Source: Paludibacteraceae bacterium (GTDB taxonomy: Bacteria > Bacteroidota > Bacteroidia > Bacteroidales > Paludibacteraceae). From it: a stretch of DNA of 64,000 nt. This document shows, piece after piece, positions 37,403 through 61,460 of the stretch. The notes beneath the pieces were generated by a model. It was not told the origin of the DNA, made no database searches, and worked only from the letters and a program-made list of their open reading frames with translations. The stretch spans positions 7,686-71,685 of the forward strand of contig JAGPGD010000002.1 in assembly GCA_018056165.1 (NCBI GenBank). Reading direction: 5' to 3'. Numbering within the stretch: the first letter of the stretch is position 1; each line of letters opens with the position of its first letter. A program made the position numbers and the translations under genes.

Positions 37403-37423
37403 CGTTGAAAACGGTGGAAAATA

Positions 37424-37440: not shown

Positions 37441-37466
37441 GTAAACATAAGATAAACTTCATTGTT

Positions 37467-38396: not shown

Positions 38397-38763
38397 TTTT
38401 TTTCTCTTTTAGTTTTGAATGATATAAAGCAAAAGTTAGAGTGCGTTCCAGTATTTTTTTAAGAAAAAAAAGTTTATCAATATCTTTTGCAACTTCTTGT
38501 AGTTGCTTACAAAAAGCATTAAAATCCTCATAATTATTGTGAAAATCAACATTTAGATAACTTTTAATTTCATCATCCTTTAATAAATCAATTAAACTTT
38601 TTCTTATACTTTTATCCTCTTTTTCCAGCCAGAGAAACATGGCATAAACGCCATCTTCCTGTAAAATACCAAGAGCTTTTCTGAGAATATTCTCTTTTTT
38701 ATCTTCTGCATTTTCTCCTATGTCCTGACCTGTTTTTGCACATATATAATCAAGGTTTATCAT
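38380..38763 (-). CDS. cmr5: Type III small subunit (Cmr5/Cas11-like)
   Basis: 127-aa all-helical protein located between the cmr4-like and cmr3-like genes. Assigned by size, predicted helicity and position. Confidence 0.5.
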   Translation of the reverse strand: MINLDYICAKTGQDIGENAEDKKENILRKALGILQEDGVYAMFLWLEKEDKSIRKSLIDLLKDDEIKSYLNVDFHNNYEDFNAFCKQLQEVAKDIDKLFFLKKILERTLTFALYHSKLKEKKNVDKA

Positions 38764-38765
38764 GG

Positions 38766-39647
38766 TTATTGTCCTCCGTTTTGATTATTGTTTGTTTGAT
38801 TATTTTGTGTTTCAGCAGTGAAAAAATCCACTCTTCCAAATCCGCGAGTTCCCATACCACCCACTCCAAGAAGTTTTATATAGGGAAATGTAGCTTCTAT
38901 CAATGAGTATACATTACTGTTTTCATTGTCCTTACGTGAATCAACGATAGTTTCAAAAGCAATAACAGTGCCTCTGGGTATGGCTTCATAGGTAAATAAT
39001 GCAGTCTCAGCGGCAGTGCCTGTTTTTGGGTCTATCCTTACTGATGTTCTAACCTCAAGATTATCATTTACAAGATGCGAAAAGAGTTTATCAGATACTA
39101 CAACAATTCGTGTTAAAAAATTAATTAATTCTGCCGGCAAAACTACTGTTTTATCATTTTCAATATTTTGGACTTTTACCAGTAACCATCCAAGATTGAT
39201 GGAATTGCATGAAATTCCCTTTATTGCATAAGCTTCATCTTTAATTTCCGGAGGAATTTTTATTGCTTCTCCATTTGTATCTTTTATTTCACTTAGCCAA
39301 TATTCAAGTAATTCTTTTGTGGTTATCCACACAGTTCCTTCACTTGATGAAACAGGAAAAAAGACTATTTGGCCATCGTAAACTCTTACCATTCCCTGTT
39401 TGTTTTCGCTGCCAAAGGTTTCTTCAATTTTAATTTTATTAAATTTCTTTTCGTTTTTATCATCTTCAGCTTTTACAATCTCTGCATAAGCTCTTATAAC
39501 TCCTGCAAGAGAGGTACCAGGTATTTTTGGCACATCTGTAGCAGGTTCTCTGACTATGGTATTATCTACTCTACCAAGCCTATATCCTCCAGCTCCGATA
39601 TGCACCGGATCTAGGGTTTTCCCTAAATATTTTTCTGGGCTATTCAT
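38766..39647 (-). CDS. cmr4: Type III backbone RAMP Cmr4 (Cas7 family)
   Basis: DPVHIGAGGYRLGRVDNTIVREPATDVPKIPGTSLAGVIR (contains the catalytic-type Asp in GRVDN), then FGSENKQG, and a C-terminal G-rich loop LGVGGMGTRGFGRV. Confidence 0.8.
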   Translation of the reverse strand: MNSPEKYLGKTLDPVHIGAGGYRLGRVDNTIVREPATDVPKIPGTSLAGVIRAYAEIVKAEDDKNEKKFNKIKIEETFGSENKQGMVRVYDGQIVFFPVSSSEGTVWITTKELLEYWLSEIKDTNGEAIKIPPEIKDEAYAIKGISCNSINLGWLLVKVQNIENDKTVVLPAELINFLTRIVVVSDKLFSHLVNDNLEVRTSVRIDPKTGTAAETALFTYEAIPRGTVIAFETIVDSRKDNENSNVYSLIEATFPYIKLLGVGGMGTRGFGRVDFFTAETQNNQTNNNQNGGQ

Positions 39648-39666
39648 TTTTTAACCTCCTTTTATT

Positions 39667-42501: not shown

Positions 42502-43427
42502 GGTTTCAATTTCAATTCTTCTATTTTTTTGTTCAGATCTTCTAGGTTAGAAAAATCAGTTACTTCTATATCTCTGTCTTTCTTTATCCATAATTTTCCT
42601 TCCTCTAATTTTTCTTCAATTACACCAAACCCACTTGTTTTTTTTGCAGAAAAGCCATAGGTATAGAACATCAACCGTAATGCATCCGCTAAAAAATTCA
42701 AATCCTCTGCCGCCTCATCTTCTTTAAAATTGTCCCCTTTTGGATAAGGGAAATACAATAGGTAAAAATCGGCACTTTTTCCCGGTTTCATCACCTCAAG
42801 ATTTATAGGTGCTTTACCTTTAGGAGGAGTCCTAGTATCTCGTTTCAATGGAGTGATCACATCTCTTTCGGCGTTATCCTTAAAAAAGGTAGGAAAGAAA
42901 TAGAGTCTTCCTTTTAATTGATTCTCTTTTTCTTCCGATTCCGAGCCAAAGATCCTTTTAATAATTCTCTTCTTTTTTTCATTTTCCCCCTTTACTTTAC
43001 CTGCGGCAAAACGCAAATGTCCTTTCCATGTTGAAGGCTTTACCATGGGAAGCCCTGTGAATTTATCTCTGGCGATGGGATTTTCTGTAATTTTACCATT
43101 AAGAATACGAAACTCTTCCTCGTCTTTACTTGTATAGGGCTTTTTGAGAGTAAAAGAAATTTTTAAAAGAGTGGTATTTTGAGGAAGATTTTGAATATCA
43201 TTTTCTGAAGGATAAAAACAATTTATATTTTTATTTTCTGCTAATTTTTCCTTATCATTTTTCTTTTGTTTAGCTAAAGGAAGCATAAATATTTCTTCCA
43301 ACCAGAGATTACATTTTTCTTGTTCATTTTTACGTTCTATTTTATTTTGATTTTCTTTTTTCCAATCTTCAAAATTTTTTATATCGGTGACGATAAGCCT
43401 TGAAAGATAATAATCATGTATAATCAT
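42498..43427 (-). CDS. cmr6: Type III RAMP, Cmr6-like (Cas7 family)
   Basis: FTGLPMVKPSTWKGHLRFA, IFGSESE..KGRLYFFPTFF, and C-terminal G-rich YGFSAKKTSGFGVI. 4-nt overlaps with both neighbouring genes. Confidence 0.6.
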   Translation of the reverse strand: MIIHDYYLSRLIVTDIKNFEDWKKENQNKIERKNEQEKCNLWLEEIFMLPLAKQKKNDKEKLAENKNINCFYPSENDIQNLPQNTTLLKISFTLKKPYTSKDEEEFRILNGKITENPIARDKFTGLPMVKPSTWKGHLRFAAGKVKGENEKKKRIIKRIFGSESEEKENQLKGRLYFFPTFFKDNAERDVITPLKRDTRTPPKGKAPINLEVMKPGKSADFYLLYFPYPKGDNFKEDEAAEDLNFLADALRLMFYTYGFSAKKTSGFGVIEEKLEEGKLWIKKDRDIEVTDFSNLEDLNKKIEELKLKP

Positions 43428-44464
43428 AATAAGTCCTCCACTAATTTTTTACCGGATTTTTCCTCTTTCAGATCGCAAAATTCTAATTTATTTTCTTCTT
43501 TGGAAAATAACATCTGATTTATTCTTTCTTCCATATTGGTTTTGATGTTTTCTTTTAAATAATCATTAAGATCATGTCCCCAAATTCTAATTTCTACAGT
43601 TCTTTCATCAATTTTATAACCATGAGAAACAAAAATTTTAGAACCTTTACCCATTTCACCGAAAATTGTATGTCTTTTATTATAATTGCTTTCTAAAGAT
43701 CTTAACGCATCTCTAATATGAAACGCGATAGGTAGGAAATGATAGTCTTCCCATAAGGTTTCCCAGTGACCCCAATTATCTTTAAATTTTTTATGTTTGG
43801 GAGAATGGGTCCCAAAAACTTTATTTTCAATTAAGTTATTGATATCTTCTTTGAATTTAATATGAAACTTATAAAAGAAGAAATGTTCTAAGTTGGGTGA
43901 GTTAATGGTATGACTTATTATTTTTCTTAACCCGGATTTATCCACCTTTTCGTCATTATTCGCTAAACTATTCTTAACAATTTCTATTACTCCATTCCCT
44001 TGTGATATACGTGCTCCTATGGCACCATAGTTCGCTATTATTTTAAAGGTAGCATTCAACAATGTTAATTCATTAGAAGTAATTTTTCTTAATGGTATAA
44101 ATTTCAAAATTATTGGTTCATTAGACATAAAACCTGAAACACTTCTTTTTAAATATTTTTTTTTATGACTCATTCTTGTCCCTATTTGTATTTCTGGGAT
44201 TTTATGGTTAAAGTTAACTTCCAGTCTGAACTTCCTTGCCCATCCTGTGCAGCCAAATAACTCACATGCATCACAATGTTCTTTTTCTTTACATTTTGTA
44301 TTTGTTGGGTCACAAGCATATCCTCCAAGCCCTCTGATCAGTGCTTCGTACCACCATCTCAGGCTCCCTATTATTCCCGTTTCTCTCAGTGTGGGGCTTT
44401 CCCTTTGAGCATTGCCTGTCCAGATTGGGGTTAATGATCTAATTTCAACTGCATATTCTTTCAT
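43424..44464 (-). CDS. cmr1: Type III RAMP Cmr1-like (Cas7 family), first gene of the operon
   Basis: SLTPIWTGNAQRESPTLRETGIIGSLRWWYEALIRG and CDACELFGCTGW are Cmr1-type motifs. 346 aa. Confidence 0.7.
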   Translation of the reverse strand: MKEYAVEIRSLTPIWTGNAQRESPTLRETGIIGSLRWWYEALIRGLGGYACDPTNTKCKEKEHCDACELFGCTGWARKFRLEVNFNHKIPEIQIGTRMSHKKKYLKRSVSGFMSNEPIILKFIPLRKITSNELTLLNATFKIIANYGAIGARISQGNGVIEIVKNSLANNDEKVDKSGLRKIISHTINSPNLEHFFFYKFHIKFKEDINNLIENKVFGTHSPKHKKFKDNWGHWETLWEDYHFLPIAFHIRDALRSLESNYNKRHTIFGEMGKGSKIFVSHGYKIDERTVEIRIWGHDLNDYLKENIKTNMEERINQMLFSKEENKLEFCDLKEEKSGKKLVEDLL

Positions 44465-44560
44465 TTTGCTGTTTCATAAAATGTTAAATGACAGGTATAA
44501 TACCTACATTGGGTTAAATTTCACAAGTTTTTTATTGTAACCACGATTTTTATTCGACTT

Positions 44561-44568
44561 CAAATGTA
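44561..44568 (-). promoter_or_regulatory. -7 promoter box (TACATTTG on the minus strand) between the array end and cmr1
   Basis: CAAATGTA on the plus strand, ~97 nt upstream of the cmr1 ATG at 44464. Confidence 0.35.
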
Positions 44569-44625
44569 TAATTTTATTTTTAAACTTAAAAAGAATGATT
44601 CATTTTTATGCATGCATTTGCTTAT

Positions 44626-47600
44626 ATTTCAATTCCTTCTGGTGCGATTAAAAGATTTATTGCATTTATAACTCTCGTATCATAGGTGTGTTATTTCAAT
44701 TCCTTCTGGTGCGATTAAAAGTTTTAAGTCTTTTAACGCCGATTTAACAAAAATATAATTTCAATTCCTTCTGGTGCGATTAAAAGTGCCAATCTTGCAT
44801 CTGGTGAATATTCTGAATCTCCATTTCAATTCCTTCTGGTGCGATTAAAAGTATAATTCAATAGGAAATAATTTTAATTATAATTCAATATTTCAATTCC
44901 TTCTGGTGCGATTAAAAGTTTGATGTAAGAGCGAGTTCTAATACAACCTCTACTTATTTCAATTCCTTCTGGTGCGATTAAAAGAAAACTGCACTAAATA
45001 AGGTTCACTTGCTGTACTGCATTTCAATTCCTTCTGGTGCGATTAAAAGTGTAATCTTGTAAAACTATACTTAATTCATCGATACATTTCAATTCCTTCT
45101 GGTGCGATTAAAAGAAAACTGCACTAAATAAGGTTCACTTGCTGTACTGCATTTCAATTCCTTCTGGTGCGATTAAAAGTGTTCATAATATCCATAATAA
45201 TCCGATTTTAATCGCATTTCAATTCCTTCTGGTGCGATTAAAAGTATGGAGAAGAAAATGCAAAATTGGTAGAAAAACAATTTCAATTCCTTCTGGTGCG
45301 ATTAAAAGCGTGCATCGCTGCGTGAAATAAAAGGTATTTTCACGCATTTCAATTCCTTCTGGTGCGATTAAAAGTGCTAAAAACGTATATGGAAGTATAA
45401 ATAGGCTGCTATTTCAATTCCTTCTGGTGCGATTAAAAGAATGCGTCGAAAATTGCACTTTTAATAAAAAAAATCATTTCAATTCCTTCTGGTGCGATTA
45501 AAAGCCGTATTACAGGAAGTTATTCAGCAAATTAAGCAGAATTTCAATTCCTTCTGGTGCGATTAAAAGTATCAATTCTTTTACGTCTATCCAAAAATAA
45601 TCTGTATTTCAATTCCTTCTGGTGCGATTAAAAGATTTAATTGAAGACAAGGCGGTTCAAATATACATTAATTTCAATTCCTTCTGGTGCGATTAAAAGT
45701 TGACCGAAAAATCATAGTTGGCTTTGCCGAAAATATATTTCAATTCCTTCTGGTGCGATTAAAAGAAACAAGAACAAAAAGCTTTAATGGATTTCGACAT
45801 AAATTTCAATTCCTTCTGGTGCGATTAAAAGTTTCTGCAATTCAGGAACAACAAGCTGCTTCAAAATTTCAATTCCTTCTGGTGCGATTAAAAGTTGCGA
45901 ACAGGGCAAACCGGCGTTCCAACTAAATGAGAATTTCAATTCCTTCTGGTGCGATTAAAAGGCTGACTGCGATTACATAGCAATTGAAAATCCGGTATTT
46001 CAATTCCTTCTGGTGCGATTAAAAGAATCCTTGTTGTATTATGCCAATTCGCTTTCGGCATTTCAATTCCTTCTGGTGCGATTAAAAGAACTATATTTAC
46101 AGGCGAATGCAAGATTGCATCGGCATTTCAATTCCTTCTGGTGCGATTAAAAGTTAATAAATATTTTCTTGGAATAACTTCCGTTATTGCATTTCAATTC
46201 CTTCTGGTGCGATTAAAAGCGTTGCTTTGCAATGCCTAAAACAAGTGAAAGTCGTCCGTTATTGCATTTCAATTCCTTCTGGTGCGATTAAAAGATGGTG
46301 GAAGAACCAGAAACCTGCAAAAACATGATAATTTCAATTCCTTCTGGTGCGATTAAAAGCTTTTCAATAGTCTCATAAAATTCATCTAATTCTTTTATTT
46401 CAATTCCTTCTGGTGCGATTAAAAGACTATTGAGAAAAAAAGAATTTTTACCCCATTTATATTTCAATTCCTTCTGGTGCGATTAAAAGTTTGAATATAA
46501 ACCAGACGGAAGCACCGGTGCAAAATTTCAATTCCTTCTGGTGCGATTAAAAGCTGGATTAGATATTATAAAATCATTACAGAGATTTTAATTTCAATTC
46601 CTTTTGGTGCGATTAAAAGTCGTTTTTTCATTCATTTTATCCATAAAAGGAATAACGCATTTCAATTCCTTTTGGTGCGATTAAAAGTTTTGGTTAAGTC
46701 TTGCAAGTTCGCTTTCTGATAGATTTCAATTCCTTTTGGTGCGATTAAAAGCAATAATAGCTGCAATAGCTGCTGCTATTATGCTCAATTTCAATTCCTT
46801 TTGGTGCGATTAAAAGCGAGAAAAGCAAATTTATGATTTGATTCAAATGTAATTTCAATTCCTTTTGGTGCGATTAAAAGATTTAAAACTGCCACCAACA
46901 GATAATAATTGTAAGATATTATTTCAATTCCTTTTGGTGCGATTAAAAGCGCCTGAACGATCTTTTGATGCTTCTAAATTGTTTCAATTTCAATTCCTTT
47001 TGGTGCGATTAAAAGTAGATATTGCTGATAAAAGCTGTTGCACGAAAATCTCATTTCAATTCCTTTTGGTGCGATTAAAAGATAAGAACATATAAATAAA
47101 TTCTATTGCTTTGCTATCATTTCAATTCCTTTTGGTGCGATTAAAAGACACGCAATTCAGACAGAATTCAAAAGAAATGGGAAATTTCAATTCCTTCTGG
47201 TGCGATTAAAAGTTCAACTCCTGATTACATTGACAAGTCAATTGTTGGTTTCAATTCCTTCTGGTGCGATTAAAAGAAATTCACCCCACCCAAAAGCCCG
47301 TCCAGCTTTACGAAGTTTCAATTCCTTCTGGTGCGATTAAAAGTTATTAAATTCTTTTACATATTTGTCTGAATTACAAGTTTCAATTCCTTCTGGTGCG
47401 ATTAAAAGTAAAAAAATTATTCGTATAGCTTGCGAGGAGTTGTTGTTTCAATTCCTTCTGGTGCGATTAAAAGCATAATCGATAAAATAACTTTATACAA
47501 CGCTGATTGTAGTTTCAATTCCTTCTGGTGCGATTAAAAGTTATAAAATGAATTAATTGTTAACTTTTCTTCATCGTTTCAATTCCTTCTGGTGCGATTA

Positions 47601-50600
47601 AAAGTTTTAAACTTCAAGAAAAATATAATATAGGTACTGCGAAGTTTCAATTCCTTCTGGTGCGATTAAAAGTATCGTATTTTTCAAGAACGAAATCACG
47701 AATTTTATGTTTCAATTCCTTCTGGTGCGATTAAAAGAACAGCTTTAACAAGTTGTTGAAATTCTGATGTGTCGTTTCAATTCCTTCTGGTGCGATTAAA
47801 AGAGGAGCTGTTTGGTGATTATTTCTCACCAAGCTGCGTTTCAATTCCTTCTGGTGCGATTAAAAGTCAGGAATTGAGAAATGAAATAAAAAGGCTCAAT
47901 AGTTTCAATTCCTTCTGGTGCGATTAAAAGAAGAAGTTAAACAAATTAATTATCCTCAACTTCAAGTTTCAATTCCTTCTGGTGCGATTAAAAGTATTAT
48001 ATAAGCTCTCATAATGTTAAATTTTTAAGTTTCAATTCCTTCTGGTGCGATTAAAAGTTGGTGGTCTTCTGGTTTTTTTCTTTTTTCCGCAGTTTCAATT
48101 CCTTCTGGTGCGATTAAAAGCATGATCTCACCAGCAGGCGTGCTTCGTGAAATTCTGACGTTTCAATTCCTTCTGGTGCGATTAAAAGATTTTTGACAAT
48201 TTCTAATTTAATACTCTTGTCAATGTTTCAATTCCTTCTGGTGCGATTAAAAGAGAAGTTAAACAAATTAATTATCCTCAACTTCAAGTTTCAATTCCTT
48301 CTGGTGCGATTAAAAGATATCAGAGAAAATTTGCAATGTATGCTAGACGTGGCATGTTTCAATTCCTTCTGGTGCGATTAAAAGCCAATGCCGTTAAATT
48401 TTCTTTAACTTTTTCGCTGTTTCAATTCCTTCTGGTGCGATTAAAAGTAAAAGGCTTTGGATTTTGACGGGGGTTATAAATGTTTCAATTCCTTCTGGTG
48501 CGATTAAAAGATTCGCAACTTTTTTAAGTTTGTTAATAATAGGTAGTTTCAATTCCTTCTGGTGCGATTAAAAGATTCGCAACTTTTTTAAGTTTGTTAA
48601 TAATAGGTAGTTTCAATTCCTTCTGGTGCGATTAAAAGCTGAAATTCTTGAACAGTCCCGACACTCCGATGCTGTGTTTCAATTCCTTCTGGTGCGATTA
48701 AAAGTTTTTGCTGTGTTAAAACTTTTAACAATACCATGATTGTTTCAATTCCTTCTGGTGCGATTAAAAGTTTAATTGTTGCTCCGAAGCGTGTTGCCGA
48801 GCATGTGGTTTCAATTCCTTCTGGTGCGATTAAAAGAGTTATGAAACAATTTAAGGATAAGGAATTTGATCGTTTCAATTCCTTCTGGTGCGATTAAAAG
48901 TGACAATATTTGAAAAATTATGTTACATCGCAGATGTTTCAATTCCTTCTGGTGCGATTAAAAGAAAACGTGCTTTCTACAATGCTTTTATCGATATAGT
49001 CGTTTCAATTCCTTCTGGTGCGATTAAAAGATGGTGGTTCGTTTTCTTCTTCCTCAAACTCGAAGTTTCAATTCCTTCTGGTGCGATTAAAAGCAAAATT
49101 GTATATTCTTTAAAATCAGATAGATACATGTTTCAATTCCTTCTGGTGCGATTAAAAGGATTATAAGTTTGATGATAAATCAAAGCACGAAAAAGTTTCA
49201 ATTCCTTCTGGTGCGATTAAAAGTTTGTTCACCAAACGATAAAAATTTTCTTTCAAAAGTTTCAATTCCTTCTGGTGCGATTAAAAGATTTTCCTGAATG
49301 GTATTCTGAATTTGATTTTATCGAGTTTCAATTCCTTCTGGTGCGATTAAAAGCTCAAAAAGCACGAGGCGTGAAATGTAAGGATTTGGTTTCAATTCCT
49401 TCTGGTGCGATTAAAAGGATTATAAGTTTGATGATAAATCAAAGCACGAAAAAGTTTCAATTCCTTCTGGTGCGATTAAAAGCTGGTGTTACATCAAACT
49501 TTTTCTCAAAATGATAGTTTCAATTCCTTCTGGTGCGATTAAAAGAGTGTTAAACGGAGCGACAACAGTAATAAAAAGGCTGTTTCAATTCCTTCTGGTG
49601 CGATTAAAAGGGACTTCGGAGACACACGAGACCCGAATTGTTTAGTGTTTCAATTCCTTCTGGTGCGATTAAAAGTGTCTTTTCTTTCCATTTGTCGAAT
49701 TGTCCGTTGTCGTTTCAATTCCTTCTGGTGCGATTAAAAGTTTTGCAGAATGTTAACAATTCTTGTATTCCCTCCTGGTTTCAATTCCTTCTGGTGCGAT
49801 TAAAAGCATAATGAGGGGCATTAATATAAATTTTTGCGTTGTTTCAATTCCTTCTGGTGCGATTAAAAGCACCTGAACCAACTGCCCCAGCCAGTAGCAC
49901 GCCGTTTCAATTCCTTCTGGTGCGATTAAAAGTTCATTGCGCGGTTATTTGTTGTACTTCTTTTGCTGTGTTTCAATTCCTTCTGGTGCGATTAAAAGGC
50001 CTTCTACATACCCGTTAACTCCCTCGTCGTCTATGTTTCAATTCCTTCTGGTGCGATTAAAAGCGCCAGTTTCGGCGTGGATAGTTCGGATTTGATATGC
50101 GTTTCAATTCCTTCTGGTGCGATTAAAAGTTCTTTTATACATTCAAACAAATAACAAGCTATCTCGTTTCAATTCCTTCTGGTGCGATTAAAAGATTCCT
50201 TTGAAGTCTTCAAAATTTGAAATAACAAAATGTATGTTTCAATTCCTTCTGGTGCGATTAAAAGTCGTGGAATGTTAAAAGAAAAAAAGATATGGGTTTA
50301 GTTTCAATTCCTTCTGGTGCGATTAAAAGAAAACGTGCTTTCGACAATGCTTTTATCGATATAGTCGTTTCAATTCCTTCTGGTGCGATTAAAAGTAAGC
50401 AGCATTGGACTGTTTTCAATGATGACATATTTGTTTCAATTCCTTCTGGTGCGATTAAAAGCCTCTTGCAACCACACATGCTCGGCAACACGCTTGTTTC
50501 AATTCCTTCTGGTGCGATTAAAAGAAATTTTAAAAAGTTCAAATTCATACCTTGTTACAATGTTTCAATTCCTTCTGGTGCGATTAAAAGCAACAATTGC

Positions 50601-53600
50601 TGATAAAATAATCGTAATAATCGCAACGTTTCAATTCCTTCTGGTGCGATTAAAAGACACCTGACAACGATAATCAGGAAACAATTATAAGTTTCAATTC
50701 CTTCTGGTGCGATTAAAAGTGAATATAAAACTCTTTTGCTTTACAAAATTTGGTTAAGTTTCAATTCCTTCTGGTGCGATTAAAAGTTGAAACAGAAGAC
50801 GTAAATTCATTAATCGACAGGTGTTTCAATTCCTTCTGGTGCGATTAAAAGTTACCTTGTAAATCAAGTTGATATACTTTCTTTGGTGTTTCAATTCCTT
50901 CTGGTGCGATTAAAAGATCTGTGCCTGCAATCCAAGCCCGTAAATCTTCCAAGTTTCAATTCCTTCTGGTGCGATTAAAAGCTTACAAACAGCACACCGA
51001 AAAGATTTATCGCTTTGTATCGTTTCAATTCCTTCTGGTGCGATTAAAAGTAATTTCTTTGCCGCCGTCATGCGGACTTGTTTTGTTTCAATTCCTTCTG
51101 GTGCGATTAAAAGAGGACGAATTGACCGAATACGACATCATGGTAGCAAGTTTCAATTCCTTCTGGTGCGATTAAAAGACACAAAAACGAAAGCCTTTGG
51201 AAGATTTACGGGCTGTTTCAATTCCTTCTGGTGCGATTAAAAGTCACTGTCAGTTGAGAAGAATTCAACCCACGATCCATTGTTTCAATTCCTTCTGGTG
51301 CGATTAAAAGCAATTATCAATAAATCTTCATATGATTTCGATATTGTTTCAATTCCTTCTGGTGCGATTAAAAGCTGCACAACGTAAACGACAGAATTTT
51401 GCGTCCCGATAAAGTTTCAATTCCTTCTGGTGCGATTAAAAGTGAATAGCTTCATGATTGAGTGTTATATCGTCAATCTGTTTCAATTCCTTCTGGTGCG
51501 ATTAAAAGCTGTCAGTTGAGAAGAATTCAACCCACGATCCATTGTTTCAATTCCTTCTGGTGCGATTAAAAGCGTTACTCGATTATAATCCTTCGTTTTC
51601 AGACGATCATGTTTCAATTCCTTCTGGTGCGATTAAAAGTGACAATATTTGAAAAATTATGTTACATCGCAGATGTTTCAATTCCTTCTGGTGCGATTAA
51701 AAGGACAATATTTGAAAAATTATGTTATATCGCAGATGTTTCAATTCCTTCTGGTGCGATTAAAAGCTGTTGACAAGTCTATCAAATTAGAAATTGTCAA
51801 AAATCTGTTTCAATTCCTTCTGGTGCGATTAAAAGCCCAAATTTTTAACAATCTGAAATGTGATTGTTAAGTTTCAATTCCTTCTGGTGCGATTAAAAGC
51901 TTATAAATGCAGAAAAATGCGAAGATTAAAAAAACGTTTCAATTCCTTCTGGTGCGATTAAAAGGTTTTTTCCTTCCATTTATCAAATTGTCCGTTGTCG
52001 TTTCAATTCCTTCTGGTGCGATTAAAAGCACAATTGAATTTATTGATAGGGATACTAAAGAATGTTTCAATTCCTTCTGGTGCGATTAAAAGGAACTTGA
52101 AAAAAAATGCTGTAATTATGCTCGCAAACGTTTCAATTCCTTCTGGTGCGATTAAAAGGATTTTACAAATGAAAAAGTTTTTACAAAGATTAGACTAGTT
52201 TCAATTCCTTCTGGTGCGATTAAAAGATTTTTCTTAAAATATCTGAACGTTTCCAGCAGCTGTTTCAATTCCTTCTGGTGCGATTAAAAGTCATTTTCAT
52301 CCCATTTTTTTAAGAAATTTTTATCATTGTTTCAATTCCTTCTGGTGCGATTAAAAGTTTTTTATAATTTTTTTTTATAAAATTATCTTTTTGGGTTTCA
52401 ATTCCTTCTGGTGCGATTAAAAGTTCGACTTCAATTTCAGCCTTCCGAAATGCTTCTGCGTTTCAATTCCTTCTGGTGCGATTAAAAGTAAAATTTGTTT
52501 ATCAAACGCAAAAGGTTTGGCGTCGTTTCAATTCCTTCTGGTGCGATTAAAAGTTCGACTTCAATTTCAGCCTTCCGAAATGCTTCTGCGTTTCAATTCC
52601 TTCTGGTGCGATTAAAAGGGTTGGGCTGCTGTCAAATTAGAAAAAAATCATAATAAGTTTCAATTCCTTCTGGTGCGATTAAAAGTTAGATACCCTAAAC
52701 AATTCATGCCAATATTCTTTGTTTCAATTCCTTCTGGTGCGATTAAAAGTTGAAAAAAACGATGTAGTGCTTAAAATTTTATGGAAGTTTCAATTCCTTC
52801 TGGTGCGATTAAAAGGGATAATCATCAGGAGCATAGACAATGCTCCCTTCGTTTCAATTCCTTCTGGTGCGATTAAAAGATTAAAATGTATCATACTTCT
52901 TATAATTAACTTCAAAGTTTCAATTCCTTCTGGTGCGATTAAAAGTTTATTGATAGTGATATTTTTAGTTATACCATCGCAGTTTCAATTCCTTCTGGTG
53001 CGATTAAAAGAATATCAAACCTATTGATTCGTAACCTCTTATGCGGTTTCAATTCCTTCTGGTGCGATTAAAAGGTTGAAAAGGTTAAATTTATTGATAA
53101 AGTAAAATAGTTTCAATTCCTTCTGGTGCGATTAAAAGCTGAATTTCATAATTTCCCGCTTCACCGTGTTGCGGTGTTTCAATTCCTTCTGGTGCGATTA
53201 AAAGTTCTTCGTTACTACGCCGCCAAGCTGCCTTAGATCCGTTTCAATTCCTTCTGGTGCGATTAAAAGCGGATACGCCAAAATTTTCTGAATTACTGAT
53301 TAAATGTTTCAATTCCTTCTGGTGCGATTAAAAGACTATTTTCTGGCAACAGGACATAAATAGTAATTTCGTTTCAATTCCTTCTGGTGCGATTAAAAGG
53401 AAAATTATGTTAGAAATTTCAAAGATAAATTAAAAGCTGTTTCAATTCCTTCTGGTGCGATTAAAAGAACCAATACTTATTTGATAAGAAGTTGAATCTT
53501 CGGTTTCAATTCCTTCTGGTGCGATTAAAAGGGATTGCCCAGACTGGATTGGAAACAGGAGTGCCTGGTTTCAATTCCTTCTGGTGCGATTAAAAGTGTG

Positions 53601-56600
53601 CAAATAGTTACAAGTAAAAAATTCCACGAAAGCGGGTTTCAATTCCTTCTGGTGCGATTAAAAGAATAGCATAATTTAAGTTATTGTTAAAAGTTATTAA
53701 CATGTTTCAATTCCTTCTGGTGCGATTAAAAGAAGATATAAATACATAGCTGAACTCTGGTATAGCGGGTTTCAATTCCTTCTGGTGCGATTAAAAGGAA
53801 AAATGACGATGCTTTAACACGCCTACAAACGTCAAGTTTCAATTCCTTCTGGTGCGATTAAAAGGTGTAGAAGAAATTCTAACCCAATTTCCTTGCGTAT
53901 TGTTTCAATTCCTTCTGGTGCGATTAAAAGGCTTGTACCACCAACAATCCCACCTTGTTCAAAGGCGTTTCAATTCCTTCTGGTGCGATTAAAAGTATTT
54001 GTTGCTCCTATACCTTCATAGTAAAATTGAAGTTTCAATTCCTTCTGGTGCGATTAAAAGAAAATAAAAGAAAATTTTAATTTAAAGCAATGTTTCTTGT
54101 TTCAATTCCTTCTGGTGCGATTAAAAGTCACCAAATGACAAAAATTTTATATCAAAATGGGAAAAGTTTCAATTCCTTCTGGTGCGATTAAAAGAAATGG
54201 AAACAAACGAATTAAAGCGAACGAGAGAAAGTTTCAATTCCTTCTGGTGCGATTAAAAGTAGAAGGTATGGGCAACAAAAGCCGTGTGAGGGTGAGTTTC
54301 AATTCCTTCTGGTGCGATTAAAAGAAGCGGGAAATTATGAAATTCAGAAAAATAGTCAAGTTTCAATTCCTTCTGGTGCGATTAAAAGAGTGTTATTATT
54401 TTATGCTTTCCGTGAAGAGGCAATTGTTTCAATTCCTTCTGGTGCGATTAAAAGTAAACTTCTTTAATTTCCGTTCCTGGAACTTCGTGTTTCAATTCCT
54501 TCTGGTGCGATTAAAAGATAGTTATAAAGAACGCTTACTTCTCTTTGTTCAAAGTTTCAATTCCTTCTGGTGCGATTAAAAGCGTACTTCAAAGGAGTAA
54601 ATATCTCCGTAATAAGTGTTTCAATTCCTTCTGGTGCGATTAAAAGAACGAAAACCGTCTGCAAATTGGCAACCGAAATACAGTTTCAATTCCTTCTGGT
54701 GCGATTAAAAGAAGATCATATTTGTTATTAGTCGCTTGCGCTCCTCGAGTTTCAATTCCTTCTGGTGCGATTAAAAGCTATATGTATAAATCCGAGAGAG
54801 ACGGTTATCTCTGTTTCAATTCCTTCTGGTGCGATTAAAAGTCATTTTCATATTCATTTTCATATTCAGTATTTGCGTTTCAATTCCTTCTGGTGCGATT
54901 AAAAGCAAAATTTAACAATATTATACATTTAGATTGTCGAGTTTCAATTCCTTCTGGTGCGATTAAAAGCTAATTTTCCTCCCAACCCATACGGCGGGTC
55001 AACAAGTTTCAATTCCTTCTGGTGCGATTAAAAGTGGTTTGAATTTACAAGAAGGTGGTAGAATAATCGTCGTTTCAATTCCTTCTGGTGCGATTAAAAG
55101 AGGCTGCAAAATTTATGAAACTTCAAACGCTTTGCAAGTTTCAATTCCTTCTGGTGCGATTAAAAGATCGAAACATCCAGTCATATTCACCTTCCGAAAC
55201 ACTGTTTCAATTCCTTCTGGTGCGATTAAAAGCCTTAAAGAAAAATCCAAGTCCATGTACCAGATCGGTAGTTTCAATTCCTTCTGGTGCGATTAAAAGT
55301 ATTACTTTGTGTTTGTGCCTTAGTAAGTGTAGCAAAGTTTCAATTCCTTCTGGTGCGATTAAAAGTTTCGATAAGCAAAACCCGACAAAATATCCTGTAT
55401 CAAGTTTCAATTCCTTCTGGTGCGATTAAAAGTAACAATCCTTTTACATTTTCAGCAACTACTACTTTGTTTCAATTCCTTCTGGTGCGATTAAAAGTCT
55501 GAATTACAACGTATATAATTATTTTGTGCAAAGTTGTTTCAATTCCTTCTGGTGCGATTAAAAGCCCGTAAGCGTTCAGGAGGATAGTGATGTTGACGTT
55601 GTTTCAATTCCTTCTGGTGCGATTAAAAGGGCTGCAAAATTTATGAAACTTCAAACGCTTTGCAAGTTTCAATTCCTTCTGGTGCGATTAAAAGTATACC
55701 AACAAGATATGTTTACGGTTAATCCTAAATGTTTCAATTCCTTCTGGTGCGATTAAAAGTTAATTGTCGCACCAAAACGGGTGACTGAAAATGTAGTTTC
55801 AATTCCTTCTGGTGCGATTAAAAGTGTTTTGCTACTACGGCTACTTCCTTGTGCCGAAAGTTTCAATTCCTTCTGGTGCGATTAAAAGCACCCTCGTCGC
55901 TTTCTTTTGTAATGTGATAGATCGTTTCAATTCCTTCTGGTGCGATTAAAAGACAACATAAACAACAGGATTTTGCGTCCCGATAAAGTTTCAATTCCTT
56001 CTGGTGCGATTAAAAGAAGAGGAATTGGAAGAACTTAAAGCTGAAATTAAACGGTTTCAATTCCTTCTGGTGCGATTAAAAGGCTGTCAGTAGAAAAGAA
56101 TTCGACCCATGATCCGTTGTTTCAATTCCTTCTGGTGCGATTAAAAGTCACGCACTGTTGCTTTTTGTACATGTCCGCACATGTTTCAATTCCTTCTGGT
56201 GCGATTAAAAGAAGCCCTGTAATTATTTTTTGAGCATAAACTTTTACATGTTTCAATTCCTTCTGGTGCGATTAAAAGTCGGCGGAAGAAACGTTTCAAC
56301 GTGAATGTGGTAACCTTGTTTCAATTCCTTCTGGTGCGATTAAAAGTTCTTGACGTTTATTAATAATTTTAATAAAATGTCGTTTCAATTCCTTCTGGTG
56401 CGATTAAAAGACCCAAGCCATTTCTGCGTGACTAAAATTTTTGTTGGTTTCAATTCCTTCTGGTGCGATTAAAAGAAACCCAAGCCATTTCTGCGTGACT
56501 AAAATTTTTGTTGGTTTCAATTCCTTCTGGTGCGATTAAAAGTAATTTTTAATGTTTATCTTTCACACAACTTTTTTGTTTCAATTCCTTCTGGTGCGAT

Positions 56601-58348
56601 TAAAAGCGTTTACAAAAACAAAGTCGCTGCACTTCCTACGTGTTTCAATTCCTTCTGGTGCGATTAAAAGTTTGTTCACCAAACGATAAAAATTTTCTTT
56701 CAAAAGTTTCAATTCCTTCTGGTGCGATTAAAAGGATTTACCTATTGCAACTCAAGCAAATGCAGTTTTGTGTTTCAATTCCTTCTGGTGCGATTAAAAG
56801 TGTTAAAAAATATATTTTTACTCTCGATTCAAAGGATGTTTCAATTCCTTCTGGTGCGATTAAAAGTGTAATTTTCTTTTTCAGATTCAAGAACTTTTTC
56901 AGTTTCAATTCCTTCTGGTGCGATTAAAAGATCGTGACCTTTTCTCATTGCTCTTGTTTGAAAAACGTTTCAATTCCTTCTGGTGCGATTAAAAGTTTGC
57001 CATTGCAAGCCACTTCCAGCCATTTTATCAGTTTCAATTCCTTCTGGTGCGATTAAAAGTGTATTGCAGTAAAACCTCCATCTTTTGTTCCACGGTTTCA
57101 ATTCCTTCTGGTGCGATTAAAAGTTTGTCAAGCTGTCTTTGAATTTCTCAACTTGTTCGTTTCAATTCCTTCTGGTGCGATTAAAAGTCCGATTATGATA
57201 AGATTGATGCGATTGAAACTTTGTTTCAATTCCTTCTGGTGCGATTAAAAGGTTGTTGAGATTCCTTATGACTGTGTCGCTTTGAGGTTTCAATTCCTTC
57301 TGGTGCGATTAAAAGTCGATTTAAATTTGCGGAAATTAATATGTACGACACCGTTTCAATTCCTTCTGGTGCGATTAAAAGTAAACAAAATAAAAATTGT
57401 GTGCTGGCAGTTGGAAGTTTCAATTCCTTCTGGTGCGATTAAAAGCCGACCACGAATTTGCTAACTATAAGATTGTCAAGTTTCAATTCCTTCTGGTGCG
57501 ATTAAAAGTCAGTTGCCTATAGCTTATGCCGAATTATTTAAAAAGTTTCAATTCCTTCTGGTGCGATTAAAAGAAAACTCCCTCTTGTATATTCATTGCT
57601 TTGAATATGTTTCAATTCCTTCTGGTGCGATTAAAAGTTTAAAATTATAATTGTTATTTTCTGTAAAATAATGTTTCAATTCCTTCTGGTGCGATTAAAA
57701 GAAGACTTAAAAGAGCGTATTGATATTATCGAAGAAACGTTTCAATTCCTTCTGGTGCGATTAAAAGCAGATTTGAATTTGAAAGACCAAGTTATTGAAC
57801 CAAGTTTCAATTCCTTCTGGTGCGATTAAAAGCAGAGCAATAGCGTTTATATACATGTTCCTGTCAAGTTTCAATTCCTTCTGGTGCGATTAAAAGAATA
57901 TGCTTTATGGAGATATTGTTCATGTAGATGCTGAGTTTCAATTCCTTCTGGTGCGATTAAAAGTGGCAAGCTGCAAATAATTAGCTCCGTTGTAAATCGG
58001 TTTCAATTCCTTCTGGTGCGATTAAAAGCCCAGCTCTTACAATGAGTTATACACAAAGTTATGGTTTCAATTCCTTCTGGTGCGATTAAAAGCGTGCCGA
58101 AAGAAATTATTTCAACAAAAAAAATAGTGGTTTCAATTCCTTCTGGTGCGATTAAAAGTTCCTGTATTTTGTCGGTAGGTGTCCGGCTATATGTTTCAAT
58201 TCCTTCTGGTGCGATTAAAAGTAATTGTCAAAAATTTGTTTATTTCCATCGTTCAGGTTTCAATTCCTTCTGGTGCGATTAAAAGTATCTGCATTTTTTT
58301 TCTTTGTCGTACCAGCCCCGTTTCAATTCCTTCTGGTGCGATTAAAAG
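44626..58348 (-). CRISPR. CRISPR array: 211 direct repeats of 29 nt and 210 spacers (34-39 nt, one of 46 nt)
   Basis: Plus-strand consensus GTTTCAATTCCTTCTGGTGCGATTAAAAG (171 copies, 47248-58348). Variants: ATTTC..CTTCTGG.. (30 copies 44626-46553, plus one at 47184) and ATTTC..CTTtTGG.. (9 copies 46591-47147). Repeats were counted by hand. Minus-strand transcription is inferred: that reading ends in ATTGAAAC, the array follows cas1-cas2 plus a leader, and re-acquired spacers vary in length only at their plus-strand 5' end. Confidence 0.97.
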
Positions 58349-58559
58349 CCGTGCTCTGTATCAAAAATTTTATCTAAAAATCAAATTGTTAGCAAAACAA
58401 TGAGCATCCTTTATGGAATGTAAAAATTGTCGATAGGCAAAAATATAAAAATCCTTGATTTTCGACAACTTGTTTTTATCTTGATTTTCAATAGATCAAA
58501 AAAAAATCATATTCGAATTCAACAACATAAAAAGAAAAAACTCATCTTTCGACAATTGA
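58349..58559 (-). other. Putative CRISPR leader (A/T-rich, ORF-free) between cas2 and the first repeat, with a -7 box at 58438-58445
   Basis: 211-bp A/T-rich spacer. CAAAAATA (TATTTTTG on the minus strand) lies ~90 nt upstream of the repeat at 58348. There are three TCGACAA motifs (58427-58433 inverted, 58462-58468, 58549-58555) and a duplicated CTTGATTTTC. Confidence 0.55.
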
Positions 58560-58823
58560 TTACAAAAAAATATCAGTGCTACTTCTTTCTTTTCCAATGA
58601 TTTGTTTGTCAAGAAATTTTTCTGTCCTGCTGGAAAAAATAATCAATGAATCTTCTTCCAATTTCATGATTCTTTCTGCAAATATAATTAATTCTTTCAA
58701 TTTGACTTCTGAAATTTCTCCTTCAAAAACCGAATTTTGTATCCAGTTCAAATATCTCCGACAAAGTTTGAGCATTTTTGCTACTCGTTTTTCATTGACG
58801 TCATATACCAAAATTACGTACAT
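58560..58823 (-). CDS. cas2: CRISPR-associated endoribonuclease Cas2
   Basis: MYVILVYDVNEKRVAKMLKLCRRYLNWIQNSVFEGE.. is a canonical Cas2 N-terminus. 87 aa, abutting the cas1 stop. Confidence 0.95.
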   Translation of the reverse strand: MYVILVYDVNEKRVAKMLKLCRRYLNWIQNSVFEGEISEVKLKELIIFAERIMKLEEDSLIIFSSRTEKFLDKQIIGKERSSTDIFL

Positions 58824-59840
58824 TTACCAATACATTTTAAACGGTTTGTATTCTTCCATCCCCAGCAAATGTTTGCTCAGTTTATAACACTCCAACTTGA
58901 TGAGATGTCGATAACTCACTTTCCGTTTGAGCGATCGGTGCTGAATGGTTTCGTTGAGCCGTTCTTCGAATGCTTGAACAAAAATCTTTTTTCCCGATGG
59001 ATTAAGCAAACATTTGTTGAGTTTACTTTCAAAATGTTTTTCCTGAAGCTCCCTTTTGTTCAACAATTTGAAAATTACTCTGTCCACCAGTATGGGCTTA
59101 AAAATTTCCGAAATATCCAATGATAAGGAATAACGACGTTCTCCTGGAGTATGCAAATAGCTGATAGTTGGATTCAATTGTGTTTGATGAATAGCACGCA
59201 AACATTGGGAATAACACATCATATTGCCAAACGAAATCAAGGCATTCACTTCGTTTCTCGGTGGCTGCTTACTTCTTCCTCCCATGCTGAAATCGTTGAT
59301 GATTTCATCAAAACCATCATAATAAGTTTGTCGGATATTGCCTTCCAATCCCATAACTTCGTCCACCGCATTTGCATTGGGCAAGGCAAGAATGTATTGT
59401 TCTATTTTTTCGATAACGCCATCCAAATCTTTTCCTCGCGTATTGTAATATTTCAGATTTTTCATCATATTGAAAGCCGCACCTTCCACAAACTTGCGGG
59501 CAAGTTCCAACCGTTTTTTCTTATTTTGATAAGCTGATGTTTGTGCCAGAATCATTTTTCCAGACAACAAACTGTCGCGGGGCATGAATGAGCCCGTATA
59601 ATTTTCATAATAATCAAAAAAATGTACAGCTATATCGTGTTGTCCCAAAAAGTTATACAAAGCACTATTGGCAGTCAAAGCACCGAACACGTAAAATTCT
59701 GAAATATCTTCCACCGGCAAATAACGTGGTTGACCTTCGTGATCAATGCCATTTTCATCTTCTTCAATGGGCGTAAACTTAATGGTATTGTCCTTTCGCT
59801 GCAAGGTGCCAGGATTGAAAAGGTAATAGGTCTTTTTCAT
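58824..59840 (-). CDS. cas1: CRISPR-associated endonuclease Cas1 (type I-B-like)
   Basis: 338 aa. The N-terminal beta domain (YYLFNPGTLQRKDNTIKF) and C-terminal helical domain (NALISFGNMMCY, EIFKPILVDRVIFKL) match Cas1. Confidence 0.95.
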   Translation of the reverse strand: MKKTYYLFNPGTLQRKDNTIKFTPIEEDENGIDHEGQPRYLPVEDISEFYVFGALTANSALYNFLGQHDIAVHFFDYYENYTGSFMPRDSLLSGKMILAQTSAYQNKKKRLELARKFVEGAAFNMMKNLKYYNTRGKDLDGVIEKIEQYILALPNANAVDEVMGLEGNIRQTYYDGFDEIINDFSMGGRSKQPPRNEVNALISFGNMMCYSQCLRAIHQTQLNPTISYLHTPGERRYSLSLDISEIFKPILVDRVIFKLLNKRELQEKHFESKLNKCLLNPSGKKIFVQAFEERLNETIQHRSLKRKVSYRHLIKLECYKLSKHLLGMEEYKPFKMYW

Positions 59841-59927: not shown

Positions 59928-60287
59928 TTACAGTGTTTTTGATAGTTTCTTCTTGTAAGAGGACATGACTTTCAGAATTTCTTCGGTTTCATTTTTAAAT
60001 TCATTAACTTTAGCAATAGGAAGAATTTCGAGTTCTTCAATTAATTCAAGCCAAAAAGCGGTTTCATCAGCTTCTTCCACGACTATGCACATTTTGGCAT
60101 ATCTTTCCCGTTCGGATCGAGCTCTGCAAACTGCTCTGTAATTGGCTGCAACAGAAGTTGCAGAACGAATAATTTGTTTTCTGATAACCGAAACTTCATC
60201 CGAAAATTTCACTTTAGCCATTTCTCTCACAATTTCCAATGCCAACTTTTTTGTTCGTTCCCTGAAAATGTCATTGTATTCCCTCAT
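59928..60287 (-). CDS. Four-helix-bundle protein (23S rRNA intervening-sequence protein family)
   Basis: ..ERTKKLALEIVREMAKV..IRKQIIRSATSVAANYRAVCRARSERERYAKMCIVVEEADETAFWLELI.. is typical of the family. The ATG at 60287 is preferred; the track ORF start at 60329 translates the flanking repeat (VIGDKVIGD). Confidence 0.8.
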   Translation of the reverse strand: MREYNDIFRERTKKLALEIVREMAKVKFSDEVSVIRKQIIRSATSVAANYRAVCRARSERERYAKMCIVVEEADETAFWLELIEELEILPIAKVNEFKNETEEILKVMSSYKKKLSKTL

Positions 60288-60314
60288 ATCACCTATCACT
60301 TTATCACCTATCAC
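60288..60314. repeat. Inverted counterpart of the GGTGAT run (ATCACCTATCACTTTATCACCTATCAC)
   Basis: The reverse complement reads GTGATAGGTGATAAAGTGATAGGTGAT. It supplies the last codons and the TGA stop of cas4. Confidence 0.8.
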
Positions 60315-60813
60315 TTTCCTCTTCCACATAACAAAAATCGTAATAACTGCAATTCTTGCAAATTTTCGAATGAATTACTGGAGGGCAATCATCGGATTGA
60401 ATAATTTCAGTAATCTCCTTCTCCATCCCGGCAATTTTCTGTCGGTCGGCATCCGTCAGCTCCACTTTAGTAGTTTGGCGTAGCGTAGGATATTCCAACA
60501 ATCCGCTAACATCTTTCATTCCGTTGCGTTCCAGCACGTAAATGTAATATTTCACTTGCCAGATATGCGCCTCTTCCACTTTGTCCGAACGTTTGATCTC
60601 GTGAATCACTTTATTTCGAGCATCATAATAATCGATTTTTATACCATCGATTTCCACTTCTTCATATCGCTCCGAACGTTGCGGATAACTCGTTTCGTGA
60701 ATTAGCTTGCCATCATAGACTAGATCTGAAGTTTGCTCCATGTTGATGCCATTGGCAAACAGCCAAAGTTTTCGTTTGCAAACCTGATAGTAGTTGAAAT
60801 GAGTGCCGGTCAT
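60304..60813 (-). CDS. cas4: CRISPR-associated exonuclease Cas4 (RecB-like, 4-Cys)
   Basis: N-terminal Cys (YYQVCKRKLWL), nuclease motifs (DYYDARNKVIHEIKRSD, QVKYYIYVL) and a C-terminal CxxCxxxxxC cluster (CKNCSYYDFC). 169 aa. Confidence 0.9.
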   Translation of the reverse strand: MTGTHFNYYQVCKRKLWLFANGINMEQTSDLVYDGKLIHETSYPQRSERYEEVEIDGIKIDYYDARNKVIHEIKRSDKVEEAHIWQVKYYIYVLERNGMKDVSGLLEYPTLRQTTKVELTDADRQKIAGMEKEITEIIQSDDCPPVIHSKICKNCSYYDFCYVEEESDR

Positions 60814-60842: not shown

Positions 60843-61460
60843 TTATTTTTTCTTCAAAATATTTTTATACATCCGATTAAAATCTGCAGCTTCTTCGGCA
60901 AAATTATATTCTTGGGGGTTCCATTCTTCATCCGATTCTAAGCCCAGCCATTCAAGCATTTCCTCTCGCTCAGGATTCGATTTGTCGGCTATAGCCTCTT
61001 TCAATTCTTCATATCCCCAAGGTCCGCCACAATCTTCAGGTGGACAGGCCCCTTTGCCATTCAACAAAGTTGCCGATGGAGAGTTGTCGGTTTCGTCGAT
61101 TTTTTCCAATGTGATCTTGTGAACCCAATTGTCCCCAAAATCATAGATATACATAAAAGTTTGCCCTTCTGTATTGAAAATATCCGAAATTTTGGTTTTC
61201 TTAGCATTCATCTTTCCAGTTGAATTTCTCGAAAGAAAAGAAGAGAAATCATTTGCATTTCTATCCGGGTTAGCCTCTATCATGGGACTTGATCCATAAC
61301 CCGAAGGCGAAAAAGCATACATATGCTCATTCTCCCATCCAAATGCATCTTGAATGATATTATGAAACTGGTCGAAAGTAATTTCCGACGGCACAAGTAC
61401 TCGTCGCCATACTGGCGGTTTAGTAACGTCTTGTAATTGAATTTTAAATTGAAAAGTCAT
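60843..61460 (-). CDS. Plasmid pRiA4b ORF-3-like (PRiA4_ORF3 / MM3350-like) domain protein
   Basis: FKIQLQDVTKPPVWRRVLVPSEITFDQFHNIIQDAFGWENEHMY, YIYDFGDNWVHKITLEKI and CPPEDCGGPWGYEELKE are the signature blocks of this family. 205 aa. Confidence 0.8.
   Translation of the reverse strand: MTFQFKIQLQDVTKPPVWRRVLVPSEITFDQFHNIIQDAFGWENEHMYAFSPSGYGSSPMIEANPDRNANDFSSFLSRNSTGKMNAKKTKISDIFNTEGQTFMYIYDFGDNWVHKITLEKIDETDNSPSATLLNGKGACPPEDCGGPWGYEELKEAIADKSNPEREEMLEWLGLESDEEWNPQEYNFAEEAADFNRMYKNILKKK

Follow-up and report, generated by a model that had tools for sequence, protein, structure and literature searches.

A long type I-B CRISPR array as the probable guide source of an adjacent type III-C operon in a Paludibacteraceae genome

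In Pyrococcus furiosus, type I-A, I-G and III-B CRISPR systems operate with a single Cas6. Sharing of CRISPR RNAs (crRNAs) between type I and type III effectors, as a defense against escape mutants, is established for the I-F and III-B systems of Marinomonas mediterranea (Silas et al., 2017, PMC5576922), and in Thermus a type III-associated Cas6 modulates a I-B system (PMC12102369). For type III-C, a locus adjacent to a I-B system has been illustrated for an archaeon (Shmakov et al., 2023, PMC10120712, Fig. 4D). According to Makarova et al. (2025, PMC12669027), an array is absent from most III-C loci, Cas6 is apparently supplied in trans to the majority of type III systems, and III-C has an inactivated cyclase. 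Considered here is a 64-kb stretch of DNA (referred to as the window; positions 7686-71685 of contig C22) from a metagenome-assembled genome (MAG) of a Paludibacteraceae bacterium, in which a CRISPR array of 211 repeats lies between the genes of a type I-B system and a III-C operon. The best-matching named homologues of the HisG protein of this MAG (77-80% identity) belong to Paludibacteraceae, Paludibacter and other Bacteroidales. An earlier, sequence-only reading of this stretch had proposed that the one array feeds two interference complexes, appealing to type I/type III sharing as a known counter to escape by mutation of the protospacer-adjacent motif (PAM) or seed; as regards I-F and III-B, that appeal is well founded (PMC5576922).

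The best reading of the locus, and a probable one, is that the array supplies crRNAs to both the I-B and the III-C effectors, because the III-C module is apparently intact and no other guide source is visible. Indeed, the array is the only visible guide source for III-C. The degree of confidence expressed here applies to the explanation as a whole, namely an array built by the I-B system, crRNAs that load both the I-B and the III-C complexes and a III-C module that came as an add-on. Like the I-B/III-C loci described previously (PMC10120712; PMC12669027), the present locus comprises a I-B system beside a Csx11-type III-C module that is without adaptation genes, cas6 or an array and that has an apparently inactivated cyclase, with solo repeats found near the locus. 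It differs in belonging to a bacterium, in containing two cas6 genes, and in that the III-C operon, flanked by repeats, stands directly behind the trailer of a 210-spacer array. As in M. mediterranea and P. furiosus, one repeat family and a PAM-selecting adaptation module are found beside a type III effector that has neither, and the same benefit against PAM or seed escape mutants would be expected. In those organisms, however, sharing was shown experimentally, whereas here it is inferred from sequence, and the partner here is III-C, predicted to be incapable of cyclic oligoadenylate signaling. The adjacency of I-B and III-C and the supply of crRNAs to III-C in trans are already described, such that the dependence proposed here is as current models expect. 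As to the earlier statement that sharing had not been examined for III-C, no publication that tests crRNA loading or sharing for III-C by experiment turned up in literature searches, which agrees with that statement as far as experiments are concerned, but not as concerns the adjacent loci and in-trans supply that had been described before.

The array and the elements associated with it are the following, with positions given as those of the window.

44626-58348, minus strand: CRISPR array of 211 repeats (29 nucleotides each) and 210 spacers, 204 of which are distinct (mismatch-tolerant pattern search and Tandem Repeats Finder)
58349-58559, minus strand: leader of 211 nucleotides, from the cas2 stop codon to the first repeat, containing a block that is also conserved in G817 and G876, two further genomes of the order
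57574-57803, minus strand: spacers 199, 201 and 202 in left-to-right numbering (12th, 10th and 9th when the leader is taken as the start), which match contig C42
44465-44625, minus strand: gap of 161 nucleotides between the trailer repeat and the cmr1 start codon
37374-37402, minus strand: degenerate solo repeat, 64 nucleotides downstream of the III-C operon
35377-35405, minus strand: another solo repeat (one mismatch), directly adjoining a CN-hydrolase gene that is truncated

A mismatch-tolerant pattern search of the window returned 211 copies of the repeat, all on the same strand and reading CTTTTAATCGCACCAGAAGGAATTGAAAC as transcribed from the minus strand, separated by spacers of 34-41 nucleotides, with a single outlier of 46 nucleotides at 46220-46265. 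The repeat and spacer counts and the array boundaries offered by the sequence-only reading were thus exact, and its description of the array as the sole one in the window also holds, the two solo repeats lying outside it. That reading had further pointed to a second array elsewhere in the genome, with a different repeat and its own cas6 next to another effector, as evidence that would, together with a failure of III-C to load crRNAs from the present array, speak against sharing. When all 103 contigs of the MAG (2.02 Mb, 33% GC, estimated to be 94.7% complete and 0.06% contaminated) were searched for the repeat, allowing up to five mismatches, and scanned de novo for periodic k-mers, no further array was found. 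The MAG accordingly holds a single repeat family, subject to its 94.7% completeness and to the frequent failure of arrays to assemble. A periodic repeat on contig C35 (approximately positions 50,780-51,580; period of about 100-130 nucleotides) was rejected as an array, being apparently a coding tandem repeat; this region includes a 100-N assembly gap. No stable hairpin was predicted for the repeat on either strand.

Bacterial arrays typically contain fewer than 50 spacers, with arrays of more than 100 being relatively rare and the record standing at 587, in Haliangium ochraceum (PMC8047081, PMC7145573). As in H. ochraceum, a single array here is far above the usual bacterial size, although 210 spacers amount to about one third of the record, making the array large but not exceptional. 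The earlier description of the array as far above typical size is therefore correct relative to the usual number, yet the array remains within the known range. It is unusually long yet otherwise ordinary, its length reflecting sustained acquisition and not a new mechanism.

Five lines of evidence agree in suggesting that the array is transcribed from the minus strand, starting at the cas2 side. The minus-strand repeat has ATTGAAAC at its 3' end, as type I-B and type III repeats usually do. Duplicate spacers that are offset by 1-3 nucleotides always share their cas2-proximal end, as expected of the PAM-proximal, leader-proximal end. The flanks of seven of seven protospacers contain CC at positions -3 and -2, on the cas2-proximal side. 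Spacers that match a phage-like contig are the 9th, 10th and 12th counted from the cas2 end. Finally, in G817 and G876, the same repeat family directly follows homologous cas1/cas2 genes, behind a leader of some 210 nucleotides. The oldest (trailer) end of the array is accordingly placed at 44626 and the newest at 58348. Read from left to right, repeat variants are arranged in blocks, namely 30 copies that start with A, nine that start with A and contain TTTTGG, one that starts with A and 171 consensus copies that start with G. The 40 repeats at the trailer end, i.e., the oldest, end in GAAAT, as does the repeat of G817, whereas the newer 171 end in GAAAC. The conserved block of the leader fits a promoter of the Bacteroidetes type, with a -33 TTG at 58468-58466, a 20-nucleotide spacer and a -7 element, TATTTTTG, at 58445-58438, the published consensus for such promoters, from Bacteroides, being TTG at -33 and TAnnTTTG at -7. 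In the 161-nucleotide gap between the trailer and cmr1, promoter and terminator scans, which performed at chance level, returned no terminator-like site and only weak promoter-like sites.

The putative targets of the array were sought by comparing its spacers with the remainder of the MAG, with phage and plasmid collections and with metagenomes. Spacers 199, 201 and 202 match contig C42, a phage-like sequence of 5.7 kb assigned to the same bin, at 33/35, 37/37 and 36/36 positions, respectively, in each case next to a 5'-CCW PAM; the protospacers lie at C42 positions 3544-3576, 3734-3769 and 5543-5579. Three of the five C42 proteins match PHROG families, and the C42 sequence recurs in two other metagenomes at 97-99% identity (Ga0116146_1007555 and ERZ795052 NODE-24106). 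The newest part of the array thus appears to target a phage that co-occurs with the host. C42 is more likely a co-binned free phage than an integrated prophage, since the latter would mean lethal self-targeting. Of the three matched spacers, two give crRNAs that are antisense to the coding strand of C42, which is in line with use by III-C, although this count is based on only three protospacers. Beyond C42, no match to any part of the array was found among INPHARED phages or PLSDB plasmids, exact-pattern scans of IMG/VR with three spacer cores and one repeat core gave no match, the metagenome scan for targets gave only the two further, short copies of the C42 phage, and no convincing spacer match was detected in the rest of the MAG. 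A 52-kb IMG/VR virus encoding a 63%-identical homologue of a C42 protein was set aside as being too distant to carry the protospacers. The comparison of the spacers with viromes and metagenomes that had been put forward as a way to find targets and a PAM succeeded in part, the C42 phage being found in the bin itself and again in two metagenomes, and nothing in INPHARED, PLSDB or IMG/VR.

The flanks of the three C42 protospacers (CCA, CCT and CCA), together with those revealed by four antisense-overlapping spacer pairs with zero mismatches (CCA, CCG, CCT and CCA), point to 5'-CCN as the PAM. All seven flanks agree, and 5'-CCN is a PAM known for some type I-B systems. Redundancy within the array is considerable, comprising six identical spacer pairs, some eight offset or variant pairs and the four antisense-overlapping pairs, with no duplication of collinear blocks. 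Such repeated uptake of spacers from both strands of the same targets is consistent with primed type I adaptation. Among I-B systems, that of Clostridioides difficile uses a CCW PAM and that of Haloarcula hispanica carries out priming. The present system resembles these in having CC at -3 and -2 (seven of seven flanks), an adaptation module that contains Cas4 and spacers drawn from both strands of the same regions. It differs in its effectors, which are of the Tneap flavor (Cst2/Cas5t), in the presence of a separate gene for a 166-residue protein after a short cas8-like gene, and in that the operon contains three inserted non-cas genes, one of which is IS200-like. The array is a genuine and recently active type I-B array; its Cas4/Cas1/Cas2 module selects 5'-CCN protospacers and adds the spacers at the end next to cas2.

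Downstream of the array lies the III-C operon, the genes of which are listed below.

43424-44464, minus strand: cmr1, encoding a Cas7-family repeat-associated mysterious protein (RAMP) (profile/annotation search)
42498-43427, minus strand: second RAMP gene, in the cmr6 position (profile and synteny)
39667-42501, minus strand: gene for Cas10 of the Csx11 family (TIGR02682, 740 bits, cut-off 249, covering residues 5-943 of 944)
38766-39647, minus strand: cmr4, D28 of the product aligning with P. furiosus Cmr4 D26
38380-38763, minus strand: small subunit gene, in the cmr5 position (synteny; 27-53% identity in seven loci)
37467-38396, minus strand: gene for a cmr3/Cas5-like subunit (synteny in eight loci)

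From its sequence, this operon is a canonical III-C module, and it appears to be intact. Csx11 presents an HD motif at residue 25, and a motif search did not find a GGDD-like motif in the protein. In Cmr4, residue D28 corresponds by alignment to D26, the catalytic aspartate, of the P. furiosus protein. The operon is without cas6, cas1, cas2, a CARF gene or an array of its own. An ANME-1 MAG and seven genomes from the phylum show the same cmr1-cmr6-cas10-cmr4-cmr5-cmr3 order, as far as each locus is assembled. The sequence-only reading had described a type III operon, assigned to III-C, that lacks its own cas1, cas2 and cas6; both the absence of these genes from the six-gene Csx11-type operon and the III-C assignment, with its TIGR02682 score and a gene order kept in eight loci, are confirmed.

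In a shallow search, the closest homologues of the III-C proteins were found in the ANME-1 MAG (PQXC01000011.1, Methanophagaceae), at 47-63% amino acid identity, as compared to 23-44% for homologues within the same phylum, which suggests that the module moved between domains by transfer. Of 401 genomes sampled from the phylum, seven gave a Csx11 score above the cut-off, and no Csx11 was detected in the family's three other genomes or in G817 and G876, the relatives that share the repeat, the leader and the I-B genes. Because these relatives have the same repeat and I-B genes and no III-C, the module seems to be a later add-on to the I-B array. The operon occupies what amounts to the position of a 7.2-kb 'spacer' between direct CRISPR repeats, namely the last repeat of the array and the degenerate solo repeat (37374-44654). 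A related arrangement is found in another genome of the phylum, G099 (contig C1, approximately 1,009,000-1,031,000), where a III-C locus has its own fusion of reverse transcriptase (RT) and Cas1 and two arrays, all in the same direction. Common to both loci are a one-directional series of adaptation gene, leader, array decaying toward the effector and cmr1 to cmr3, as well as repeats ending in ATTGAAAC; in G099, however, the adaptation gene is the RT-Cas1 fusion that belongs to III-C, whereas here it is the type I-B Cas4/Cas1/Cas2 module. The G099 cas6 gene is apparently interrupted by IS21 and IS3 elements.

The positioning of the III-C operon and the repeat sequence are both in line with a shared guide supply. 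The operon begins 161 nucleotides behind the trailer repeat and runs in the same direction as the array. Arrays found next to III-C operons, and in the same direction as these, have repeats that end in GGATTGAAAC in G099 and in GGATTGAAAG in the ANME-1 MAG, with 8-nucleotide tags that are identical to that of the present array or differ from it by one base; the tag found beside the nearest III-C relative is one base different. In the mechanism proposed, pre-crRNA would start at the conserved leader promoter and be read from the minus strand. Cas6, probably the cas6a product, the gene of which travels with the repeat family, would cut this transcript to yield crRNAs bearing a AUUGAAAC 5' tag. 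These crRNAs would load the I-B Cascade, leading to PAM-dependent targeting of DNA with Cas3. The same crRNAs would also load the III-C complex, which would act on transcripts without need of a PAM, through RNA cleavage by Cmr4 and DNase activity of the Csx11 HD domain. Given the absence of the cyclase motif, the III-C complex would give no cyclic oligoadenylate signal. In this manner, III-C would provide I-B with a second line of defense against escape by PAM or seed mutation.

On the other side of the array, the window contains the following genes.

58560-58823, minus strand: cas2 (PF09827, 73 bits)
58824-59840, minus strand: cas1, type I-B class (TIGR03641, 475 bits, cut-off 304)
59928-60329, minus strand: four-helix-bundle gene (23S rRNA intervening sequence protein family), inside the adaptation module, between cas4 and cas1
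60304-60813, minus strand: cas4 (PF01930, 187 bits)
60843-61460, minus strand: PRiA4_ORF3-family gene, not a cas gene, between cas3 and cas4
61588-64000, minus strand: cas3, of which the window holds the C-terminal 803 residues; the full protein of 903 residues, with HD and helicase domains, extends some 300 nucleotides past the window end

The cas2-cas1-cas4-cas3 flank noted in the sequence-only reading was recovered as described in profile searches, on the minus strand and with two non-cas genes in between. The remainder of a I-B operon, predicted to lie past position 64000, was likewise found on the contig. This portion (locus L001, 274-9357) contains, in addition to the cas3 N-terminus, an IS200-like tnpA, cas5t, cas7 (Cst2), the gene for the 166-residue protein, the cas8-like gene, cas6b and cas6a. 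The whole 33-kb locus is one-directional, on the minus strand, in the order cas6a-cas6b-cas8-small subunit-cas7-cas5-(tnpA)-cas3-(PRiA4)-cas4-(four-helix bundle)-cas1-cas2-leader-array-cmr1-cmr6-csx11-cmr4-cmr5-cmr3. Cas7 and Cas5 match TIGR02585 (162 bits) and TIGR01895 (125 bits), respectively, while the 397-residue protein in the Cas8 position matches no NCBIfam model and, in Pfam, only the family Cas_CXXC_CXXC (28.7 bits, cut-off 21). The start of the gene for the 166-residue protein overlaps the stop of the cas8-like gene (TAATATG). The tnpA gene, which is IS200/IS605-like (RAYT-like), lies at L001 3098-3601 (C22 72098-72600) between cas5 and cas3; it shares their orientation and leaves both genes unbroken. 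A homologue of the four-helix-bundle protein in G817 (L059, 1168-1488; 75% amino acid identity) is encoded between cas1 and cas2. With the G817 copy also being in the adaptation module, the association of the gene with this module is conserved, even though its position moves.

Where the sequence-only reading had assumed one Cas6 encoded elsewhere, two cas6 genes were instead found, one behind the other, where the I-B operon starts (L001 7555-9357; C22 76554-78356). These encode proteins of 241 residues (cas6b) and approximately 284-334 residues (cas6a) that are 24% identical and both assigned to TIGR01877. In G876, the repeat family is accompanied by a cas6a-type gene only, making the cas6a product the likelier repeat-processing enzyme. 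Homologues of cas6b are common in Bacteroidota, many at about 60% identity (Mariniphaga, Bacteroidales MAGs), and one distant homologue was seen in a 400-genome sample of the class; cas6b seems to have been acquired together with the effector cassette now in place.

Several points weigh against a shared supply of crRNAs as set out above. We infer the loading of III-C from the absence of alternatives in an incomplete MAG of 103 contigs, and the type I cassettes found on three other contigs of the bin, which come with cas6 homologues, could have arrays that did not assemble. The repeat could be processed by either of two candidates, cas6a and cas6b. Targets were identified for only three of the 210 spacers. 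The order of the repeat-variant blocks, in which A-start copies stand on both sides of the TTTTGG block and are followed by the G-start copies, requires reversion or recombination in whichever direction it is read. A sigma-70 scan of the leader did no better than chance, the Bacteroidetes-type promoter being a consensus match only. Lastly, the Rfam family CRISPR-DR2 matches the plus strand, although this match is below threshold (21.6 vs. 37 bits) and says little about the strand.

Other explanations were weighed against these same observations. The III-C module could be a passenger that landed at the decayed end of the I-B array by recombination between repeats and is either unloaded or unexpressed, with the array serving I-B alone. 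The bracketing of the operon by the last repeat of the array and the degenerate solo repeat does resemble a scar of insertion or recombination, relatives with the same repeat and I-B genes do without III-C, and the closest III-C homologue found is archaeal. Yet all six III-C genes are full-length, with the HD motif present and the residue aligned with the catalytic aspartate of Cmr4 kept, the 8-nucleotide tag is but one base off that beside the nearest III-C relative, and no other guide source is visible, rendering this explanation unlikely. It is more improbable still that the length of the array was inflated in assembly by the joining of variants from co-existing strains into a chimera of 211 repeats. 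Such an origin is suggested by the 103-contig state of the MAG, by the occurrence of six spacers twice, in some cases kilobases apart, given that duplicates create ambiguous assembly paths, and by the breaking of related loci in other MAGs at the array. The duplicates are, however, scattered and often offset by 1-3 nucleotides, mismatched or antisense, unlike the collinear blocks that a joining of strains would give; such a distribution speaks against a chimera and favors the same targets having been sampled repeatedly. Moreover, the blocks of repeat variants are clean and the array is anchored on both sides within one contig of 100 kb.

The number of effectors that are served bears on the proposal of one array feeding two complexes, which gains in that III-C has a candidate guide source here and is qualified in that extra type I cassettes on three contigs may raise that number. 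These contigs, C63, C37 and C31 (L009, L010 and L011), each start inside a cas6a homologue (93%, 78% and 50% amino acid identity, respectively) and carry type I cassettes of cas8, cas7, cas5 and cas3, the last three of which show at most some 25-30% identity to their C22 counterparts, if any similarity can be detected. C37 terminates in a cas4 homologue, and the end of C31 is a fragment with 81% identity to the tnpA located between cas5 and cas3 on C22. In C31, cas3 comes first and shows a I-G-like order of helicase then HD. The contigs may be other loci of the genome, population variants or mis-binned neighbors; no long identical overlaps or ends shared with C22 were found, and their origin as bubbles in the assembly graph was rejected on this basis. 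If the contigs derive from this genome or population, more than two effectors might be served by the array, or by sister arrays of its repeat family that did not assemble, with these cassettes drawing on the same memory. The divergent cassettes anchored on cas6a homologues, the C37 and C31 ends and a GC content similar to that of C22 speak for this possibility. Against it stand the lack of long identical overlaps with C22, the 76-89% nucleotide identity of the cas6a genes, suggestive of other species or old alleles, the ease with which small contigs are mis-binned and the absence of array repeats from all three contigs. On balance, service to more than two effectors has a small chance of being correct, if a somewhat better one than the passenger or chimera. 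The pattern otherwise looks like the swapping of effector cassettes on a conserved frame, or again like mis-binned neighbors. Taken further, the locus could be a modular platform, in which effector cassettes are swapped in and out of a fixed memory and frame (cas6a, and the adaptation module with the leader), a notion based on the presence of four divergent type I cassettes, each anchored on a cas6a homologue, and on the location of III-C between direct repeats; this is a speculative idea, a little less plausible than the passenger explanation and hardly more so than the chimera. In its boldest form, the idea would have the III-C mRNA freed through read-through from the array and cutting by Cas6 at the repeats on either side, which, if true, would tie expression of III-C to transcription of the array.

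Sharing of the I-B array with III-C thus remains the preferred explanation. At present, the value of these findings lies mainly in annotation, with a 33-kb locus having been delimited and its direction of transcription, leader, PAM and one target phage defined. With 210 PAM-selected spacers and a known, co-occurring phage target, the locus offers a convenient test bed for guide sharing by III-C. If sharing is confirmed, this Paludibacteraceae bacterium would provide a natural case of a signaling-dead III-C effector living off type I-B memory.

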